Below the pieces are notes generated by a model. That model was not told the DNA's origin, did no database searches, and saw only the letters and a program-made list of their open reading frames with translations. A stretch of 41,650 nucleotides of DNA from Candidatus Buchananbacteria bacterium (lineage in GTDB: Bacteria; Patescibacteriota; Patescibacteriia; 2-01-FULL-39-33). The translations under genes and the position numbers were made by a program. The DNA lies in the NCBI GenBank assembly GCA_903863425.1, contig CAIPBY010000036.1:1-41650 (forward strand). The letters run 5' to 3'. Numbering within the stretch: position 1 is the stretch's first letter; every line of letters starts with the position of its first letter. Positions 183 through 37,174 of the stretch are shown here, piece after piece.

Positions 183-1352
183 ATGCGAGTTCTTTACATT
201 GTTGCTGTTGTTTTGTTGTTGTCGGTTAGCGCGTTTGCTGGGAACACGGTTCGTGGTCCTGGTGGACAAGCAAGTAGTCTTCCAGAGGGTGGCGGGGGTG
301 CGATTCTTTCCCTTGATGTCTGGAAAAACATCCAAGAGGGGGAGGATAGTAATTTTCGTGCAGGGTTTGAGGCGGTGTTGGGCACTGCCAAAATAACTGA
401 CGTCCTTGGAAGGTCAATGACGTCGAAAAAACTTCTTCACGTATTGCCATATCTGGATTATGTGAAGAAGTTGGACGACGACTTCGCGTTCTTCGTTAAT
501 CTCTACGCCAAAGACGCCCAAGGGTTCGCCTTCGAGAAAAACTTCGAGCAGTGGGGCTTCGATACGGAAGCACTCATCGCTCGGATAAATGTAGGCGTGG
601 GGTTGTCGTGGAAAGTGGACGACGTCTGGACGTTGGCTCTCGAGGCAGATATTGGTGTCGAGCAATTGAAGTTGGACTACGCTTTCGACATCAACAGGTT
701 CTATTTGCCGATTCTTGCCAAGAGCAGGGCGTATGGAATCGGTATTGGTGCGACCGGAGCAGTAATATGTCAGGCAACTGAGAGGTTGCGACTTGGGCTG
801 CAAGTTTCGAGTCTAATGAACATTTACTGCAAGGGTCGCACTAAGCTGTTGCGAGGAAAGGTTAGTGACACCTGGACAGCCGAGATGCCTTTCCCGATGA
901 GTGTTACCGCAGCGGGATCATATCAGCTAACCGATCGACTCGGAGTTTGTGCCGACGTGAGTTGGTACGACTTCAAGGATGACCCTTTGATACTGAAGTT
1001 CAACCATTGGGGTTTCTCAAAACCTCTGGAGTTAGGCTTCGGCGGTGTCGTTGCAGTGAGGGGCGGGTTTAACTATCAGGCGACTGATTGGTTGAAGTTC
1101 CGCGTTGGCGGTGGTTGGATGACACAGGGGGTGGATCAGAAGTATGCTGATTCCACCACTACGGATTTTCCGGGGTGGTATGGTGCTCTCGGCTTCACTG
1201 CTCAAGTTACGGGGTCAATTGACATCAGTGTGGCTTACACCCACGCTGAGGGTCATAGTCAAGAACAGTCAATCCTGCCAGGAATTTTGCCAGGGAGCAA
1301 GATTGAAGGCGGGATTGAAACTTTGATGATAGAGGGTTGCTGGAAGTTTTAA
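183..1352 (+). CDS. secreted beta-barrel outer-membrane-type protein, tentatively FadL/TodX/OmpP1-like
   Basis: 389-aa ORF with AAGGGAG (167-173) 9 nt upstream of the ATG. Signal peptide MRVLYIVAVVLLLSVSAFA. Alternating hydrophobic beta-strand pattern (IDISVAYTHA, LKFRVGGGW, VVAVRGGFNYQA), rich in Gly and aromatics. Ends in ...GCWKF, a C-terminal Phe as in OMP beta-signals. GC visibly above the backbone. Family assigned by eye only. Confidence 0.75.
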   Translation: MRVLYIVAVVLLLSVSAFAGNTVRGPGGQASSLPEGGGGAILSLDVWKNIQEGEDSNFRAGFEAVLGTAKITDVLGRSMTSKKLLHVLPYLDYVKKLDDDFAFFVNLYAKDAQGFAFEKNFEQWGFDTEALIARINVGVGLSWKVDDVWTLALEADIGVEQLKLDYAFDINRFYLPILAKSRAYGIGIGATGAVICQATERLRLGLQVSSLMNIYCKGRTKLLRGKVSDTWTAEMPFPMSVTAAGSYQLTDRLGVCADVSWYDFKDDPLILKFNHWGFSKPLELGFGGVVAVRGGFNYQATDWLKFRVGGGWMTQGVDQKYADSTTTDFPGWYGALGFTAQVTGSIDISVAYTHAEGHSQEQSILPGILPGSKIEGGIETLMIEGCWKF

Positions 1353-1600: not shown

Positions 1601-2515
1601 ATGGCAAGTGTAGTGAGTAGTAAAGTAGAGGCATTGGGAAAACGGGTGGTCCACTTCGGCGACGAGATGGACTTCATTCCGGCACGTATCCGGCAGCTTC
1701 TGGAGACGGATTGGGTCAACGCGGATGTGCGTGATTGTTTTCTCGCCAAGTCGGAAATATGCCGGATATTGCGCAAAAATCCGGCTGATTGGGAGATGCT
1801 GGATATCGTCTACTATGGCGCGTCCCCTCGCGATGGCGTCTCGCTTAGTCGAGCTGACCATTGGCTGTCCGGATCCCTTTCAGGCCAGGCTCTTCGTGAC
1901 CGTCTCAAGGTTGTTAGTTCCTGGACGGCTCGTTACATCACGAAGGCGCTGGAAGTTGATGGACGACTCACGGTGCTCGATTTAGGAGCTGGCCCGGCGC
2001 CGTATGCTCTCGAAGCCCTGAAAGCTATTCCTGATTGTTCGGAGAGGCTGAGTTGGAGGTGTGTTGACCTCGATCAGCTATCGCTTGACGAAGGCGAAAA
2101 GCGGGCACGGGAGCACGGCTTTGAGAGAGTTCTGGAGTTTAAGAACATGGACTTCTTGTCTTCCCGTAACGCCCCGGAAGCTGACGACCCCAGAGCCGAC
2201 TTCGGTCTGCTCGTGGGCATTCTGTGTGGGATGAGTCCGGCGGAAGCGGTCTCCTGCTTGCAGAAGATTAAGATGTTCTTCCGGCCTGGGGCGGAATTGA
2301 TCGTGCCGACGTTGCTCAATCAGGCGTTCGAGGAGGATCCGCAGACGTTTCGCGTCCTCTGCAACGTCCTGGGCTGGCAACTTAAGCCCAAGTCGTTGGA
2401 CGAGGTGCGTGAAGTATTCGTAACGGCGGGGTACATCGTCAACGATATCTTCAGCGAAAGGGAAGGTGGTAACGGCCAGTACGCAATCGTGCATGCGGCC
2501 ATACCTCAACCCTGA
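1601..2515 (+). CDS. class I SAM-dependent methyltransferase, substrate unknown
   Basis: 304-aa ORF with GGAGG (1590-1594) 6 nt upstream of the ATG. Motif I VLDLGAGPAPYA, then downstream acidic-loop patterns (CVDLD, KNMDF) typical of Rossmann-fold SAM methyltransferases. GC-rich like 183-1352. Confidence 0.75.
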   Translation: MASVVSSKVEALGKRVVHFGDEMDFIPARIRQLLETDWVNADVRDCFLAKSEICRILRKNPADWEMLDIVYYGASPRDGVSLSRADHWLSGSLSGQALRDRLKVVSSWTARYITKALEVDGRLTVLDLGAGPAPYALEALKAIPDCSERLSWRCVDLDQLSLDEGEKRAREHGFERVLEFKNMDFLSSRNAPEADDPRADFGLLVGILCGMSPAEAVSCLQKIKMFFRPGAELIVPTLLNQAFEEDPQTFRVLCNVLGWQLKPKSLDEVREVFVTAGYIVNDIFSEREGGNGQYAIVHAAIPQP

Positions 2516-2539
2516 CGCGAAGCCGATACTTCGCGTGGT

Positions 2540-2582
2540 CCGGGAAACTTGTAACAGAGTTTTCCCGGGCCGTATTTTTTTT
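2540..2582 (+). terminator. intrinsic terminator closing GC-rich cassette 1
   Basis: Stem CCGGGAAACT (2540-2549) / AGTTTTCCCGG (2558-2568) with one bulge, followed by a T-run at 2575-2582. A second hairpin ACGCGAAG/CTTCGCGT lies just upstream. Composition switches to AT-rich immediately after. Confidence 0.7.
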
Positions 2583-2615
2583 GTCAAAATTATGTTAAAA
2601 TATAATTATAATATT

Positions 2616-4877
2616 ATGCAGGCATCATATATATTTTTTTCCCTGTCCGCAGTTATAAGTGCTTTTATCAGCACGCTCTTTGGTTTTTTTATTTATTTCC
2701 GCAATAAACAAAGCAAGATGAACAAAACATTTGCTTTGTTTTGTTTTGGGGTTACTATCTGGTCTATTCCCTATATTTTCTGGCCTCTTGCTACCACAGC
2801 CAAGGAAACTTTGCTGGCTTTCCAGTTATTGCATATTGGAGCATGCTATGTTTCTATATTTTATTTCCATTTTACGGTGAGATGGCTGGAAATATTTGAA
2901 AAAAAGAAAAAAATAATTTATGTGGGTTATATTTTGGCTACTCTTTTTGCCCTCTCTATTCCGACGCCTTTTTTTATAAAGGATATAGTGCCAAAATTTT
3001 CTATGAGATATTGGGCAGAGCCGGGAATATTATATCATTTTTTTCTCGTAATGTTTTTTGGATATTTCCTTTATTCTTCCTATCTTTTATTCAAAGCTTA
3101 TAGGGAATCAACGGGAGTAAGGAAATTTCAAATAAAATATATTTTGGTTGGAATGGTCTTGGCTTTCCTGGGTGGTTCAACCAATTATTTTTTGTGGTAT
3201 AACATCAATATACCTCCTTATGGTAATATTTTTTCTTGTTCGTTTGTAATATTCACAGCCTATGCGATTATCAAATATCGTTTCATGGATATCCGTATTA
3301 TTGCCCGTTCATCAGCCATTTATTTTCTAGATGCCTTATATACTTATGCAGTTTTCTCTTTGTTATTAATTATATATAACTTATTTTGGGGGACGGTTTA
3401 TAATAATTATTCCTTGATAGCGGGGATTTTTGTTGCTCCATTTTTTGTCTTAGGATTATTTTGGGTGCATAACACCGCCACAAAATTTTTAAATAAATAT
3501 GTCTTCCATTCACTTTATGATTATCAGTTAGCAATTTCTAAGTTGACGCAGGAGTTAAATCGTTATACTGATTTGAATGGGATTGTAGATCTTATTGTTG
3601 ATACAATCAAGAAAACCATGGACTTGGAGAGGGCGGGAGTTTTACTGATTAACTCCGATATTTTGCCTGTAAAGTTTCAAATTGCCAAAGTGGTCGGATT
3701 TAATGAACATAACGGCATCAGTCTCGTCTCTGATAATTTATTGACCAAACATTTAGAGAGAACGCAGAAGCCTTTAGTCGGAGATGAACTATCTATGATT
3801 TCGCGTGATGCCAAGAATAAAAAAGATTCACAGAGGTTTCTGGAGTTGAGGGATTATATGAAGCACATTGAGGCTGCCCTTTGCCTACCGCTTATTATAA
3901 ATAATAAATTAATAGGCATGGTTGTATTGGGAGGCAAGAATTCTACAGAGCCTTATACTCAGCAGGATTTAGAGTTGTTGTCGATAATGTCTTTTCAGGC
4001 AGCTATTGCCATTGATAAGGCAAGACTGTATAAAAAAGTAAATGATTTTAATAAAACTCTCCAACAAAAAGTTGATGAGCAGACTAAGGATCTAAAAGAT
4101 AAGGCGGCTCATCTCGAAAAACTTCTTCAAATGCGTACGGAATTCCTCGACATTGCATCGCATCAGCTCAAGACGCCAATCTCGGTCATCCGAGGGACGA
4201 TTTCCATGTTTGAAGAGGGAAGCATGGATAAGGTGCCGGAAGCCAAGCGCAAAGAATTCTTCCATAATATCGCGGTTAAGGCAGATAAACTAAATGCAAT
4301 TATTAGTGATATTTTGCGGGCCTCGGAAATGGACACAGATGAATTTAAGCTGGATGATAAGACTTCTTCGCCTGAGCAAATCGAGGATATTGTGAAATCA
4401 GTTGACAGCCAATTGCATGCTTCGGCTAATGCCAAGAATGTGGAATTGATAATTGAGACACCGAAGACAAAATTACCCAAGGTGATGACCAGCGGAGAAT
4501 TCTTGGAGCAGGCCATTTATAATTTAGTGGATAATGGCATTAAATATACACAAAAAGGATTTGTTAAGGTTATCTTGTCGCAAGAGGGTGGCAATGTTAT
4601 TATTAAAGTCCAAGATTCTGGTATTGGTATCCCGACCAAGGAGCAGAAGAAAATATTTGATAAGTTTGCTCGTGGTACCAATGCGGTGAATATGTACACT
4701 GACGGTTCAGGATTGGGATTGTTTATTGTTAAGAAGATTATAGAAGCGCACAAGGGAGGACAAATCAGTGTACAGAGTGAAGAAGGCAAGGGCACGACGT
4801 TTATTGTCAGCTTGCCGGCGGTGGCAAATAGGATTAAAACAAAAACGGTTTTAAAATCGAGGATGAAAGGCAAATAA
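2616..4877 (+). CDS. sensor histidine kinase with polytopic membrane N-terminus, GAF-like domain, HisKA and HATPase_c
   Basis: The tracked ORF starts at 2466 inside the GC-rich terminator region. Realistic starts are ATG 2616 (MQASYIFF, used here) or ATG 2592. Multiple hydrophobic helices occupy the first ~330 aa. H-box SHQLKTPISVIRG, N-box DNGIKYT, G1 DSGIGIP, G2 GSGLGL. Confidence 0.85.
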   Translation: MQASYIFFSLSAVISAFISTLFGFFIYFRNKQSKMNKTFALFCFGVTIWSIPYIFWPLATTAKETLLAFQLLHIGACYVSIFYFHFTVRWLEIFEKKKKIIYVGYILATLFALSIPTPFFIKDIVPKFSMRYWAEPGILYHFFLVMFFGYFLYSSYLLFKAYRESTGVRKFQIKYILVGMVLAFLGGSTNYFLWYNINIPPYGNIFSCSFVIFTAYAIIKYRFMDIRIIARSSAIYFLDALYTYAVFSLLLIIYNLFWGTVYNNYSLIAGIFVAPFFVLGLFWVHNTATKFLNKYVFHSLYDYQLAISKLTQELNRYTDLNGIVDLIVDTIKKTMDLERAGVLLINSDILPVKFQIAKVVGFNEHNGISLVSDNLLTKHLERTQKPLVGDELSMISRDAKNKKDSQRFLELRDYMKHIEAALCLPLIINNKLIGMVVLGGKNSTEPYTQQDLELLSIMSFQAAIAIDKARLYKKVNDFNKTLQQKVDEQTKDLKDKAAHLEKLLQMRTEFLDIASHQLKTPISVIRGTISMFEEGSMDKVPEAKRKEFFHNIAVKADKLNAIISDILRASEMDTDEFKLDDKTSSPEQIEDIVKSVDSQLHASANAKNVELIIETPKTKLPKVMTSGEFLEQAIYNLVDNGIKYTQKGFVKVILSQEGGNVIIKVQDSGIGIPTKEQKKIFDKFARGTNAVNMYTDGSGLGLFIVKKIIEAHKGGQISVQSEEGKGTTFIVSLPAVANRIKTKTVLKSRMKGK

Positions 4878-7993: not shown

Positions 7994-8218
7994 ATGAAAC
8001 AGATTTTAGTTGAAGCTAGGCCGAACTCATCGAAAGTAAGTATTGAGAAAGTGACAGATCAGGTGTACAAGGTGAAGCTTACTGCTCCACCCGTTGATGG
8101 CAAGGCCAATATTCAGTTGATAAAAGTTCTCGCAGATTATTTTGAGGTGAGTAAGAGTCAAGTAACAATCAAGGCCGGGAAAACGTCAAAAACCAAGGTG
8201 GTGATAATATCTGGATAA
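7994..8218 (+). CDS. DUF167 (YggU-like) small protein
   Basis: 74 aa with the pattern PPVDGKANIQLIKVLADYF ... KSQVTIKAGKTSKTKVV, characteristic of DUF167. Confidence 0.75.
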   Translation: MKQILVEARPNSSKVSIEKVTDQVYKVKLTAPPVDGKANIQLIKVLADYFEVSKSQVTIKAGKTSKTKVVIISG

Positions 8219-8261
8219 GCTGAAGACAATCCTAGTTGAATATAATTAGAAAATAAGCTAT

Positions 8262-8288
8262 AATCCCTTATGCGGCATGGGATTTTTG
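8262..8288 (+). terminator. intrinsic terminator after the DUF167 gene
   Basis: AATCCC (8262-8267) / GGGATT (8279-8284) stem followed by a T-run. Confidence 0.5.
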
Positions 8289-8349
8289 GTTGTTTTTCTG
8301 TAATTTTGCCTAAAATTAGTAAAAATTGTAAATTTTAATCTAATCCAAC

Positions 8350-8378
8350 TTGACAAATAATGGCTCACGTGATAGAAT
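8350..8378 (+). promoter_or_regulatory. sigma70-type promoter TTGACA-17-TAGAAT driving the candidate ncRNA
   Basis: TTGACA at 8350-8355, 17-nt spacer, TAGAAT at 8373-8378. No ORF follows it. Confidence 0.6.
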
Positions 8379-8594
8379 ATTATATTGCGTAAAGGGAGGA
8401 CATTACCATTCATGACTCTGCAGGCACGACAAGCATGGGATTATGACAAGGATTATTTTGGTCCCACAAGACTCGAATTTTACCTTAGAATAATTTCTTG
8501 TCTGCAGGGTTATGAGTAGTATTTAGCAATCTGCGAGCCCGTAAAATTTCAAATTTGTCACCTTCCAATTAAATTTGAGAAAACTTTTATTTCT

Positions 8595-8628
8595 TCCGCC
8601 CAAGGCGGATTAATCCGCCTTGGGCGGA
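8595..8628. repeat. perfect 34-nt palindrome TCCGCCCAAGGCGGATTAATCCGCCTTGGGCGGA inside the ncRNA candidate
   Basis: The two arms 8595-8610 and 8613-8628 are exact reverse complements. Each arm is also its own CCGCC-N3-GGCGG mini-hairpin, the same motif used as a terminator at 15988-16008 and 36300-36314. Confidence 0.85.
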
Positions 8629-8791
8629 TCGCTCGGGTGGGCTGCTACGGTCAGGCACGACAAGCATGGGAATTTCTGTCAGCTTCTTTCGGGCCTCGGC
8701 TCAAAAATTGCTCCTAGAAATTTTCTTGCCTGGCCATAATAGCCCATCCGGGTCGGCTCGCAGTTTAATGAATATTACTGTCTAGCCATCG

Positions 8792-8814
8792 CTCCGCTAA
8801 CGCGGAGTTTTTTT
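8792..8814 (+). terminator. intrinsic terminator of the ncRNA candidate
   Basis: CTCCGC (8792-8797), loop TAAC, GCGGAG (8802-8807), then T7 (8808-8814). Confidence 0.7.
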
Positions 8815-8855
8815 GTTAATTAATTTGCTTGACTTATAATTTTTGTGTTATAATT

Positions 8856-9278
8856 ATGTCATATATGGGAGATAATAAACTACAAAAAAATAATTTTTTT
8901 CTTAATCAACCGGATCAAAAAGATGCGGTCCAAGATTGGTTTAGTGGGGAAGGGCAGTTGTCTTGCGATGTGTATCAGACCAATGACAGTATTGTGGTCA
9001 AATCAACTATCGCCGGCGTTGATCCGAGTAACCTAGACATCTCGGTGAGTAATGATATATTGACCATTCGCGGTTTTCGTGAGATGAGCGAGGAAGTAGC
9101 TGAGGCTGATTTTTTCAGTCGGGAATGCTATTGGGGATCATTTAGTCGGTCGATTGTTTTGCCTCAGGAAATTAATTCCAAGAGAGTTAGTGCTGGCATG
9201 AAAAATGGCGTCTTAACTATTAAATTGCCCAAGAAATACAAAACGACTTCCATCAAGATAAGGCAGTCTAATGACTAA
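8856..9278 (+). CDS. Hsp20 / alpha-crystallin small heat-shock protein
   Basis: Alpha-crystallin domain pattern (VVKSTIAGV, LDISV, LTIRG, FSRSIVLPQEI, GVLTIKLPK). The tracked TTG 8829 is really a -35-like TTGACT. The first ATG is 8856 (used). ATG 8865 is likelier if the mRNA is leaderless from TATAAT 8849-8854. Confidence 0.8.
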   Translation: MSYMGDNKLQKNNFFLNQPDQKDAVQDWFSGEGQLSCDVYQTNDSIVVKSTIAGVDPSNLDISVSNDILTIRGFREMSEEVAEADFFSRECYWGSFSRSIVLPQEINSKRVSAGMKNGVLTIKLPKKYKTTSIKIRQSND

Positions 9279-11194: not shown

Positions 11195-11219
11195 CTTTTT
11201 TGATTTAATTCTTTATAAT
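11191..11219 (+). promoter_or_regulatory. sigma70-type promoter TTGACT-17-TATAAT upstream of the tRNA/GIY-YIG unit
   Basis: TTGACT at 11191-11196 (overlaps the VanW stop codon), 17-nt spacer, TATAAT at 11214-11219. Confidence 0.5.
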
Positions 11220-11231
11220 TAGGGCAGATTT

Positions 11232-11251
11232 GTGGTATTTACCACTTTTTT
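11232..11251 (+). terminator. weak intrinsic terminator (VanW) or attenuator just downstream of the 11191 promoter
   Basis: GTGGT-ATTT-ACCAC (11232-11245) followed by T6 (11246-11251). Confidence 0.45.
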
Positions 11252-11296
11252 AATTGATAGTAGTTGTCTCATTTTTGAAAATATAGTTAACAATTT

Positions 11297-11339
11297 GGTC
11301 TCATCGTCTAACGGTTAGGACGCCAGGTTTTTCACCCGG
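11297..11339 (+). pseudogene. truncated tRNA-Glu-like fragment (acceptor 5' strand, D arm, anticodon arm only)
   Basis: GGTCTCATCGTCTAACGGTTAGGACGCCAGGTTTTTCACCCGG aligns with positions 1-43 of the intact tRNA-Glu at 11650. The D arm is identical. The anticodon loop has a 1-nt insertion and the stem has an A-C mismatch. No T arm and no 3' acceptor strand (TGAGACC) follow. Confidence 0.55.
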
Positions 11340-11391
11340 AGGGTGACCAGCCTCTGGCTGGCATCCTGACGAAATATATTGTAAATTAGAT

Positions 11392-11646
11392 ATGTGGTTC
11401 GTATATTTATTAAAAAGCAAGAAAGATGGAACATATTATATAGGTTATACGGAAAATTTAAAGCAAAGATTAATAGATCATAATCAAGGCAAGACAAAAT
11501 CAATTAAGCATAAAGTTCCTCTAATGTTGGTTTATTTTGAGGGGTATGGTAATAAAACCGTTGCTAGGACTAGAGAAATTGAATTAAAAAATAATAGTTA
11601 TAAGAAAAAAGAGATAATTGATAGGATTAAAAATATAGAGCAGTAA
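11392..11646 (+). CDS. small GIY-YIG nuclease-family protein (UPF0213/YhbQ-like)
   Basis: 84 aa. N-terminal WFVYLLKSKKDGTYYIGYTENLKQRLIDHNQG is the GIY-YIG core. Conserved Arg and Glu follow downstream (VARTREIELK). The stop lies 3 nt before tRNA-Glu. Confidence 0.75.
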   Translation: MWFVYLLKSKKDGTYYIGYTENLKQRLIDHNQGKTKSIKHKVPLMLVYFEGYGNKTVARTREIELKNNSYKKKEIIDRIKNIEQ

Positions 11647-11649
11647 TTT

Positions 11650-11721
11650 GGCCCTATCGTCTAACGGTTAGGACACCAGGTTTTCATCCTGGTAATCGGG
11701 GTCCAACTCCCCGTGGGGCTA
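11650..11721 (+). tRNA. tRNA-Glu (anticodon UUC)
   Basis: 72 nt: acceptor GGCCCTA/TGGGGCT (two G-U pairs), D arm GTCT-AACGGTTA-GGAC, anticodon arm CCAGG-TTTTCAT-CCTGG (TTC at 34-36), T arm CGGGG-TCCAACT-CCCCG. CCA is not encoded. Confidence 0.85.
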
Positions 11722-11738
11722 CAAGTTTGGATTAGAAG

Positions 11739-11757
11739 CACTCGAAAGGGTGTTTTT
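11739..11757 (+). terminator. short intrinsic terminator after tRNA-Glu
   Basis: CACTC-GAAA-GGGTG (11739-11752) followed by T5. Confidence 0.45.
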
Positions 11758-11776
11758 AATTTTGATTAAGTAATCA

Positions 11777-11811
11777 AATTAAAACGAGCCCTTGATATTA
11801 TCTCTGGGCTC
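11777..11811 (-). terminator. intrinsic terminator of the Cys-cluster gene (minus strand)
   Basis: GAGCCC (11786-11791) / GGGCTC (11806-11811) stem overlapping the stop codon. On the minus strand it is followed by GTTTTAATTT. Confidence 0.5.
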
Positions 11812-36269: not shown

Positions 36270-36298
36270 TTTTATTTTAATTTATTGTTATTGAAATA

Positions 36299-36320
36299 GT
36301 CCGCCTTGGGCGGATTTTTT
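36299..36320 (+). terminator. intrinsic terminator (CCGCC-TTG-GGCGG type)
   Basis: TCCGCC-TTG-GGCGGA (36300-36314) followed by T6. Confidence 0.75.
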
Positions 36321-36334
36321 GGTGGAAAAATTTA

Positions 36335-36364
36335 TTGACATGGTTACTTAATTTTACGTATAAT
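36335..36364 (+). promoter_or_regulatory. sigma70-type promoter TTGACA-18-TATAAT for GC-rich cassette 4
   Basis: TTGACA at 36335-36340, 18-nt spacer, TATAAT at 36359-36364. Confidence 0.55.
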
Positions 36365-36429
36365 ATAAGTGACTGGACGGCTTACCCAAATTCGGGAAAA
36401 GCAAAGATTCCAGCAAGGAGGTTACCTGT

Positions 36430-36873
36430 ATGCGTTGGATTTCGATGTTGGTAGTGGTATGTGCTGTAGTCGCGATGGCCTCGATGGCAGGCTTGACCGG
36501 CGTGGTTCAGGATGGTTCGGTCGCAGCGCTCGCGGTCGGTCAAACTTCGGCTCCCGCCGTTGTTGGGTTCGAAGGGACGATGCCGACGTGTGCCGCCGCG
36601 AATGTCGCTGGCTCGGTTTTTGCCTCTGCGACGCCGGCCCAAGAACGGGTTGGTTACGAAATGGCCAAAGTGCAAGAGATGCAGGCCAGCAAAGCAGCGA
36701 ATGACAGCGAAGTGGCGTTTGCGGCGAAGACAAGTGCTGAAAAGATCGACATGGCGATGACGGACGAACACGCGCGCGCCAGCGGTGTTTCGGTGGCCTT
36801 CATCAATGATCCCTGCGTCTCCAAGCCGATTGCCGATGTCAAGCCGATTACTGCCGAAGTCGCGTACCTCTAA
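36430..36873 (+). CDS. small secreted Ala-rich protein, function unknown
   Basis: 147 aa with AAGGAGG (36415-36421) 8 nt upstream of the ATG. Signal peptide MRWISMLVVVCAVVAMASMA. It is the only one of several overlapping GC-rich ORFs with both an SD and a signal peptide. Confidence 0.65.
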   Translation: MRWISMLVVVCAVVAMASMAGLTGVVQDGSVAALAVGQTSAPAVVGFEGTMPTCAAANVAGSVFASATPAQERVGYEMAKVQEMQASKAANDSEVAFAAKTSAEKIDMAMTDEHARASGVSVAFINDPCVSKPIADVKPITAEVAYL

Positions 36874-36998
36874 ACCGTACAGGTCAAGGTTGCGCGAGTA
36901 GTACGTTCCATGTCCGCAGATCGTGCGGACAATATCCCAAGTTAAGGGGCACTTCTGGGGAAGAAATATATAAACAAACAGGAGGACCCTGCAGTTCC

Positions 36999-37044
36999 GA
37001 GCGAGAGCGTTAGCATCAGCTGACCCCTCTCGCTCATTTTATTT
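36999..37044 (+). terminator. intrinsic terminator closing cassette 4
   Basis: GAGCGAGAG (36999-37007) / CTCTCGCTC (37027-37035) 9-bp stem, followed by ATTTTATTT. Confidence 0.6.
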
Positions 37045-37084
37045 AATTAGTATTTCCCCACTTGTATTTTTTAAATGGTCCTAT

Positions 37085-37113
37085 TTGTTGGTTATCTGAA
37101 TTTTTGTTATAAT
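37085..37113 (+). promoter_or_regulatory. sigma70-type promoter TTGTTG-17-TATAAT for the cysteine desulfurase gene
   Basis: TTGTTG at 37085-37090, 17-nt spacer, TATAAT at 37108-37113. Confidence 0.45.
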
Positions 37114-37174
37114 ATAATAAATTAATGCGACATGTTTTTGTTGTCTTTTCGGAGGTGACTTTGTAAAATAAATT

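Follow-up and report, generated by a model that had tools for sequence, protein, structure and literature searches.

A tandem-domain RNA gene of Candidatus Buchananbacteria and its proposed family in CPR/Patescibacteria

We examined a 41,650-nt contig stretch of a Candidatus Buchananbacteria bacterium (the window), and in particular an RNA gene at positions 8385-8814 of its + strand. This region is, we are confident, a stand-alone noncoding RNA gene that runs from its own predicted sigma-70 promoter to its own terminator, and it belongs, as the tandem form, to a so far undescribed family of RNAs in the candidate phyla radiation (CPR)/Patescibacteria. An earlier note, made from the letters of the window, had read the region as a stand-alone structured RNA without recognisable family, and our analysis supports that interpretation. 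The earlier note had missed an internal duplication: the RNA contains two homologous domains of ~100 nt, domain 1 at 8410-8515 and domain 2 at 8631-8753, which have in common an exact 20-mer, CAGGCACGACAAGCATGGGA (at 8421 and 8652), that occurs nowhere else in the window, with 0 such repeats expected by chance. In each domain the closing helix ends in AGGCA/UGCCU (UGUCU in domain 1) and is followed by a 10-nt bulge, CGACAAGCAU, opposite which every base is paired; beyond the bulge lies a helix opening with G·U pairs (GGGA.../...UUUC), and then two apical helices. We found the domain in at least 200 CPR/Patescibacteria sequences.

Structure and covariation

The + strand of 8385-8814 folded to a minimum free energy (MFE) of -185.7 kcal/mol, compared with a mean of -116.5 for shuffled sequences (z = -11.4; 0/100 shuffles as good), so that "highly structured" was an apt description; the opposite strand gave z = -6.3. 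The helices that had been drawn by hand in the earlier note all lay within MFE helices, with 8411-8423/8502-8514 contained in a 17-bp helix (8410-8426/8499-8515), 8635-8657/8727-8749 in a helix of 25 pairs (8631-8657/8727-8753), and the long-range helix 8531-8539/8755-8763 together with its extension 8516-8523/8771-8778 in one of 21 pairs (8516-8539/8755-8778). A hairpin proposed at about 8546-8580 was also recovered (8547-8557/8570-8580), with CCUUCC in its loop. The proposed pairing of this CCUUCC with GGGAGG (8394-8399) did not hold up; we rejected this pseudoknot because GGGAGG belongs to a 9-nt insertion missing from the three closest relatives (L001, L002 and L004). The insertion, which is part of the 5' leader (8385-8409), has no conserved counterpart in an alignment of 13 full-length tandem RNAs, and the leader is unconserved in other relatives.

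Covariation among homologs bore out the structure. Across the 13 full-length RNAs, 95.5% of cells were in standard pairs (87.1% when shuffled), and both-side changes were seen in 49 of 100 pairs, compared with 22 in shuffled alignments and 10-19 when the partner was slid by 1-3 columns; 0 of 500 shuffles reached any of the observed covariation measures. The long-range helix was especially well supported, with compensatory changes on both sides in 17 of its 21 pairs. A larger alignment of 112 domain copies had 95.5% of cells paired (78.7% shuffled), 439 doubly changed cells (133 shuffled) and a covariation score of 0.481 (0.186 shuffled); this alignment was fitted to the covariance model, which biases it toward the structure, and an independent MAFFT alignment yielded the same pairs. 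The P1 pairing AGGCA/UGCCU was present in 100% of cells and P2 in 99%, with changes from G·U to A-U and G-C. We took the + strand as the sense strand because covariance-model hits in the sense orientation (49-128 bits) outscored those in the antisense orientation (19-33 bits), because several G·U pairs are invariant (they are C·A mismatches on the other strand), and because the promoters described below lie on the sense side.

The core of the domain is a ~95-nt irregular hairpin made up of P1, the bulge, P2, P3, P4 and a variable apex, in which P2 opens with conserved G·U pairs and P3/P4 carry an invariant G·U/G-C step. Domain 1 of the window (86.8 bits with our covariance model, R1) has P1 at 8410-8426/8499-8515, the bulge at 8427-8436, P2 at 8437-8444/8490-8497 and apical helices at 8448-8463/8470-8486. 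Domain 2 (96.0 bits with R1) has P0/P1 at 8631-8657/8727-8753, the bulge at 8658-8667, P2/P3 at 8668-8683/8710-8725 and P4 at 8687-8694/8699-8706. The helices of both domains covary in the 13-sequence alignment. The 5' arm of the long-range helix (8516-8539) pairs with the 3' arm (8755-8778), as seen both in the MFE fold and by covariation, and this pairing encloses domain 2 and the linker hairpins between the domains.

Two hairpins make up this linker. The first, A+U-rich hairpin (8541-8590) displays the loop UUGUCACCUUCCA at 8555-8567, the core of which, UCACCUUCC, is unchanged in 13/13 tandem RNAs, with the full 13-mer identical in 12. When the 13 tandem RNAs were folded singly, the C/U loop motif, UCACCUUC, was entirely unpaired in 10, and it is duplicated in one of the 13 (L100). 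The loop core resembles the 3' tail of 16S rRNA, UCACCUCC, i.e., it is anti-Shine-Dalgarno-like. The second hairpin (8595-8628) is variable, being a perfect 17+17-nt palindrome in the window; since L001, L002 and L004 carry a UUCG-capped hairpin instead, the palindrome looks like a recent lineage-specific replacement. We noted that the 3' arm of the palindrome (a 16-mer, 8614-8629) recurs in a terminator, TCCGCCTTGGGCGGATTTTTT, at 36300-36320, after a gene for an RNHCP-domain protein, the 5' arm being its complement.

Relatives and invariance of the bulge

We collected relatives by a synteny route that was independent of any motif, in which homologs of the neighbouring hsp20 gene led to contigs of Buchananbacteria-like CPR bacteria. 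Three of these (L001, L002 and L004) had the same gene order as the window (DUF167, RNA, hsp20, VanW), and in two others (L006 and L008) the RNA again followed DUF167 on the same strand, but the hsp20-DUF3006-VanW operon was convergent with it and had its 3' end next to the RNA. The two domains were kept among the synteny-derived loci, as were the promoter boxes, a terminator and the C/U loop, and the helices differed by compensatory changes such as CUGCGAGCC/GGCUCGCAG to CUGUAGGC/GCCUACAG. A scan of GTDB species genomes for AGGCACGACAAGCATGG gave at least 119 matching loci, of which about a dozen were chance matches in unrelated bacteria that had no other part of the domain; the remaining loci were from CPR genomes labelled Falkowbacteria, Uhrbacteria, Kerfeldbacteria, Buchananbacteria, Parcubacteria or Patescibacteria.

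Because the genome scan itself selected for a conserved 17-mer, we checked the invariance of the bulge in three ways that were free of this selection. Both domains of every synteny-derived locus (L001-L008) had CGACAAGCAU. Second domains that were found solely by the covariance model kept CGACAAGCAU despite differing flanks (e.g., GCAUAGGA, which pairs with UUCUUUG and includes a G·U to A-U change). Finally, a metagenome scan for the 3'-strand motif AAATTTTCTTGCCTACCCG, which gave 99 contigs and covers only the Falkowbacteria-type subgroup, had the exact bulge CGACAAGCAU in 86/86 distinct complete copies, 3 others being cut by contig ends.

The domain occurs both singly and in tandem. Predicted single-domain transcripts of ~120-210 nt, with a hairpin of ~100-110 nt, were found in Falkow-, Uhr-, Kerfeld- and Buchananbacteria-type genomes. 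Among the matches listed by nhmmer and R1, the full tandem was present only in the Buchananbacteria-like group (the 13 distinct sequences above), and apart from L125 (see below) the other loci had one domain each. In the Falkowbacteria-type singlet a long basal stem, with an A-run on one side and a U-run on the other, AAAAGACCG...CGGUCUUUUUUU, also serves as the terminator; in the Uhrbacteria-type singlet the terminator hairpin is separate, and the 5' leader is rich in C and U. Insertions of 30 to ~100 nt lengthen the apex of some singlets (L101, L103, L035, L013, L042, L050, L053, L069, L105 and L120), whose model hits span 170-216 nt. Domain 1 had 63.6% identity to Uhrbacteria-type singlets but 58.0% to domain 2, and domain 2 was nearest to Falkowbacteria-type singlets (66.0%). 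Since each domain is closer to a singlet type, these identities imply that the two domain subtypes predate the tandem or are independent of it. A differently built arrangement was seen in Parcubacteria isolate BM507 (L125), which has a head-to-tail domain pair under one promoter at 2420-2680 (-) and a third, separate copy at 466-605 (-), ~2 kb from the pair; here the flanks of the bulge are altered (GCAUAGGG and GCAUGAGG).

Many third-party annotation (TPA) bins labelled 'uncultured Gammaproteobacteria' also carry the RNA (e.g., L011, L014, L016 and L019-L021). This label is probably wrong, because in many of these bins homologs of hsp20 and VanW adjoin the RNA.

An independent transcription unit

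Promoter and terminator signals mark the RNA as a separate transcription unit. In line with the earlier note, a near-consensus sigma-70-type promoter (TTGACA-17-TAGAAT, 11/12 consensus matches with a TG extension) lies on the + strand at 8350-8378, which places the predicted transcription start near 8385, and an intrinsic terminator lies at 8791-8814 (+), made up of the hairpin GCUCCGC-UAAC-GCGGAGU (8791-8808) and a run of seven U (T7 in the DNA). The TTGACA and TGATA..AT boxes were unchanged in six relatives, and a hairpin with a T-run was present at the terminator position in most of the 13 tandem RNAs. Across the wider family, TTGAC-N17-20-TAnnnT was found upstream in 94.5% of 164 distinct genes, whereas as a control the downstream side had it in 0.6% and the reverse strand in 0%. 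An extended -10 box, mostly ending 40-60 nt before GGCA, was present in 90.9% of the 164 genes, and 161/164 (98%) had a run of at least five T downstream. With a predicted promoter and a predicted Rho-independent terminator of its own, both conserved across homologs, the region has what is looked for in an independent small RNA gene.

The flanking genes in the window have signals of their own. The upstream DUF167/YggU gene (7994-8218, +; Pfam PF02594, E = 1.9e-22) has a terminator-like hairpin at ~8264-8288. Downstream, hsp20 occupies 8846-9278 (+) if its -10 box is included; its longest open reading frame (ORF) begins at 8829 (TTG), and its likely start is the ATG at 8865, where a database protein (P0002) also begins. 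Where the earlier note had placed separate promoter-like boxes of hsp20, after the terminator, we found an extended -10 box, TGTTATAAT, at 8846-8854, which is kept in L001 and L002. In these two relatives we also saw a ~170-nt inverted-repeat leader, AACTTAACCCTGTTAAAT ... ATTTAACAGGGTAAATGGG, between the RNA terminator and hsp20 (L001 ~3830-4000 and L002 ~1620-1800); the window is without it, and hsp20 there appears nearly leaderless.

The gap between the end of DUF167 (8218) and the longest hsp20 ORF (8829) is 610 nt, as the earlier note had said in calling it the largest ORF-free gap, although it is not uniquely the largest and ties with 11195-11809 (615 nt, which contains a tRNA). The GC enrichment that had been remarked on was clear: GC was 0.453 for 8385-8814, compared with 0.18-0.40 for seven other measured intergenic stretches (0.18-0.33 for six of them) and 0.397 for the whole window.

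We counted the neighbours of the RNA by Pfam name in 207 loci, a sample in which the metagenome pattern over-represents a DAGK/RNase J subgroup. The gene downstream was VanW on the opposite strand in 98/207 loci, with hsp20 beyond it, also on the opposite strand, in 79/207; in 87/207 it was DAGK on the opposite strand, with bactofilin beyond it on the opposite strand in 79/207. Upstream on the same strand there was RNase J in 72/207 loci and DUF167 in 14/207, the latter in every Buchananbacteria-type locus for which the upstream flank was fetched. Downstream hsp20/VanW on the same strand as the RNA was found in 6/207 loci, all close relatives of the window. Judging from gene order, the position of the RNA 5' of hsp20 in the window is due to a lineage-specific inversion, the RNA more widely lying at the 3' end of the hsp20-VanW operon. 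The reason for this lasting 3' position may be a terminator that serves both directions, or else a functional connection with stress. In Uhrbacteria-type loci (L018, L029, L049, L052, L080, L094 and others) we also noted a conserved block, GATCTTACG...GCAAG...TGTGGATAA, after the RNA terminator, in which TGTGGATAA matches the DnaA-box consensus.

Searches for known families

The claim that the RNA belongs to no recognisable family withstood our searches. With Rfam 15 (4227 models) at the gathering threshold, the sole match in the whole window was the tRNA at 11650-11721, and 18 related loci gave only tRNAs and one small-subunit (SSU) rRNA fragment. When we relaxed the search to E <= 10 with permissive filters, window positions 8200-8900 gave four chance-level hits (E 2.6-8.7), none of them within the two domains, and the single-domain form at L081 540-780 gave 0 hits. 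A scan of viral contigs for an 18-mer of the RNA gave 0 matches. We found no description of the RNA in full-text literature on CPR/Patescibacteria noncoding RNAs, the coverage of which was incomplete, so that an existing description is not fully excluded.

The RNA nevertheless resembles the raiA motif RNA, OLE, ROOL and GOLLD in being a predicted stand-alone, strongly structured and phylogenetically restricted RNA without known function that came to light through covariation and the GC richness of its intergenic DNA; its ~430 nt and long-range helices also put it in their size range. It differs from them in having no Rfam match, in its CPR host clade, and in its architecture, which is built from a duplicated module.

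Other observations in the window

Positions 183-2515 have a GC of 0.50-0.56, compared with 0.39 for the rest of the window. They encode a FadL/TodX-like outer-membrane beta-barrel (183-1352) and a methyltransferase (1601-2515). Because an outer-membrane barrel is unexpected in a CPR bacterium, we considered that this region may be a horizontal transfer or a chimeric contig end. A GC island at 36369-36873 (GC 0.59) was tried as a second structured RNA and rejected, as it gave z = -0.28 in folding and no match in Rfam. This region (36270-37174) has a 147-codon ORF (36430-36873) together with a TTGACA/TATAAT promoter and an AAGGAGG ribosome-binding site; the ORF has a signal-peptide-like N-terminus and no Pfam match, and the island appears to encode a small secreted protein. 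A 455-nt A+T-rich stretch (11195-11649, GC 0.30) that precedes the tRNA at 11650-11721 has no ORF of 90 codons or more.

Discussion

What might such an RNA do? We favour a model in which each bulge and the G·U-flanked helices around it would form a rigid site at which a conserved partner, probably a protein, docks. The RNA itself would be a trans-acting ribonucleoprotein scaffold or titrator, and its tandem form, whose domains are tied together by the 21-bp covarying long-range helix that encloses the linker and domain 2, would offer two such sites. We infer a partner, action in trans and multivalency because the bulge and its closing tandem G·U pairs are fixed while the surrounding helices covary, the apex is dispensable, the promoter is of consensus type, there is usually one gene per locus, and multi-domain arrangements have arisen independently. 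The pair and third copy in L125, the old subtypes of domains 1 and 2, and the UCACCUUC motif, unpaired in most of the tandem folds and duplicated in L100, are consistent with a docking site and with multivalency. The loop of the linker hairpin would add a second activity: since UCACCUUCC resembles the 16S 3' tail, it could pair with Shine-Dalgarno sequences at ribosome-binding sites, or bind a factor that recognises the tail. Under this model the RNA would recall the protein-titrating small RNAs CsrB/RsmZ, with repeated binding modules in one trans-acting RNA and paralogous copies in some genomes (L125). Sponges of that type display many GGA motifs in hairpin loops or single-stranded spacers. 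The RNA does not have the make-up of such a sponge, however, as inspection of the sequence and MFE fold by eye found no predicted hairpin loop with GGA, the GGA triplets lying in helices or in the 5' leader; its repeated unit is instead the 10-nt CGACAAGCAU bulge in a long helix, present in one to three modules.

Action as a trans-acting scaffold or titrator is, in our judgment, a serious possibility but not a probable one, and family identity and docking mechanism taken together make an account that is plausible while still falling short of probable. A further step is more doubtful, namely that a new ribonucleoprotein, spread across several CPR candidate phyla, has the CGACAAGCAU-bulge domain as its RNA subunit and is possibly a housekeeping or global regulator, perhaps one concerned with envelope or heat stress, the tandem then being a bivalent form with an added anti-Shine-Dalgarno mimic. 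The tie to envelope or heat stress was suggested by the lasting linkage to hsp20-VanW and by the G·U-rich, potentially heat-labile helix beside the bulge. Several points weigh against the docking model. An invariant bulge would be no less expected of a ligand pocket, of a catalytic core or of a pairing seed; no gene for an RNA-binding protein was found consistently adjoining the RNA, whose neighbours are hsp20/VanW, DAGK/bactofilin, RNase J or DUF167 depending on the lineage; and the pattern used in the genome scan confined the sampled diversity to loci with the 17-mer.

Other readings of the RNA were weighed against the same evidence. The position in the window, directly 5' of hsp20 on the same strand and with a terminator before the gene, would suit a cis-acting hsp20 leader, either a tandem riboswitch or an RNA thermosensor ending in an attenuator, and the G·U-rich P2 could melt on heating. 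There is also a likeness to the glycine riboswitch, in which a ~100-nt domain is likewise single in some lineages and present as two homologous copies per transcript in others, with invariant junction nucleotides between covarying helices, as in our bulge. However, the RNA has no sequence or covariance-model similarity to that riboswitch, lies outside a 5' untranslated region (UTR) and has no expression platform. In nearly all other lineages the RNA and the gene downstream of it converge, and same-strand hsp20/VanW is limited to the six close relatives; therefore the RNA, as a predicted stand-alone transcript whose promoter and terminator are kept in relatives, is not an hsp20 5' leader, as the earlier note had also argued. 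In L006 and L008 it does not adjoin the 5' end of hsp20 at all, and hsp20 in the window has its own -10 box 3' of the terminator. Synteny largely refutes the leader reading, which we consider very improbable. A similar low standing is given to the idea that the RNA mainly serves the convergent hsp20-VanW operon, as a terminator for both directions or as an antisense module, its hairpin terminating transcription and pairing with the 3' end of the VanW mRNA. The RNA does abut the convergent VanW 3' end in 98/207 loci, and the A-run and U-run flanks of the Falkowbacteria-type basal stems (AAAAGACCG...CGGUCUUUUUUU) would suit this reading, but an invariant bulge and conserved G·U pairs are unneeded for this, Uhrbacteria-type RNAs have a separate terminator hairpin, and the RNA persists beside DAGK/bactofilin and where the operon is inverted, as in the window. 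Conservation of a small protein can hardly be the explanation. There are ORFs of 44, 39 and 39 codons in the RNA region of the window, and an AUG stands at the 3' edge of each bulge; yet the window ORFs are unconserved (L001 and L004 do not have the ATG at 8412), and the ORF from the bulge AUG varied from 3 to >100 codons in 189 copies and was below 10 codons in 34 (it has 3 codons in domain 1 of L001, a sequence that domain 1 of the window shares). The frame from this AUG to the 3' motif was not preserved (106/46/37 copies by residue mod 3), and substitutions were compensatory in helices and not concentrated at third codon positions.

An alternative that we regard as unlikely, while giving it more weight than those above, is a base-pairing small RNA, in which the bulge (whose complement, AUGCUUGUCG, begins with AUG), the UCACCUUCC loop or both would be seeds on mRNA starts or Shine-Dalgarno sequences and would repress translation. 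Both elements are single-stranded and invariant, the loop has its likeness to the 16S tail UCACCUCC, and Uhrbacteria-type RNAs have a C/U-rich 5' leader. Our pairing searches were confined to neighbouring DNA and a partial 16S sequence, and in 785 kb of neighbouring DNA from ~110 genomes the complements of the bulge core were not enriched (45 nine-mer hits vs ~60 expected by our own arithmetic) and had no conserved position. The start of a nearby Metallophos gene, ATGCTTATCG, is a 9/10 match to the bulge complement, which would favour this reading but which we took as chance. Complements of the C/U loop in the window were also at chance (8 matches vs 7.2 expected), and the bulge core formed a duplex of -16.8 kcal/mol with a 16S fragment (L009, nt 1-441, ABY1-type), compared with -15.7 ± 2.4 for shuffled sequences; a resemblance to the universal 16S segments near positions 55 and 1055 was dropped on account of central mismatches. 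Moreover, conserved G·U closing pairs and a fixed geometry exceed what a seed needs, and Falkowbacteria-type RNAs have no obvious C/U loop. It is improbable that the RNA is a diverged 6S-like or 4.5S/signal recognition particle (SRP)-like housekeeping RNA missed by the Rfam models, although there is a likeness, in that the singlet is a rod-like hairpin of ~100-110 nt in a ~120-210-nt transcript with a strong consensus promoter and a conserved unpaired 5'-strand element, is single-copy in most of the 8-kb loci fetched, and is conserved across several CPR candidate phyla. 6S RNA, which binds the sigma-70 holoenzyme and is a template for product RNA (pRNA), has a large central bubble, with both strands unpaired, that mimics an open promoter, whereas the strand opposite our bulge is continuously paired and covaries. 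The small bacterial SRP RNA has a conserved apical domain IV with a GNRA-type tetraloop and a symmetric and an asymmetric loop that bind Ffh, whereas in our RNA the apex is the least conserved part and tolerates the insertions of 30 to ~100 nt, and we found no GNRA tetraloop and no AGCA/GGAA-type SRP loops. Neither 6S nor SRP (RF00169) models matched even at E <= 10, and tandem forms of 6S or SRP RNA are not known. A trans-acting ligand sensor or ribozyme, with the bulge as binding pocket or catalytic core, seems slightly less probable again. Invariance in an asymmetric junction amid covarying helices is at a level typical of riboswitch aptamers and small ribozymes, and tandem arrangements are known for aptamers, but the RNA has neither an expression platform nor a regulated downstream gene, Rfam gave no riboswitch or ribozyme match, and a single-copy chromosomal gene with a strong promoter is unlike small self-cleaving ribozymes, which are usually multi-copy or mobile.

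The CPR/Patescibacteria are a large share of bacterial diversity and are mostly uncultivated, with genomes of ~1 Mb, and we know of almost no regulatory RNAs described from them. An invariant 10-nt core across several candidate phyla, in a gene with a consensus promoter, points to a strongly selected function that current annotation has missed. The family is now defined by a seed alignment and a covariance-supported structure that are ready for Rfam, its singlet and tandem forms provide two natural architectures for comparison, and the domain is a compact target for pull-downs, ligand screens and cryo-electron microscopy. Should the RNA turn out to be a diverged 6S-like RNA or another known class, a gap in CPR annotation would still be filled. 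If the partner of the bulge is a protein, the family may reveal a new ribonucleoprotein, and with it a possible new housekeeping or global regulatory system in tiny genomes with few known regulators.

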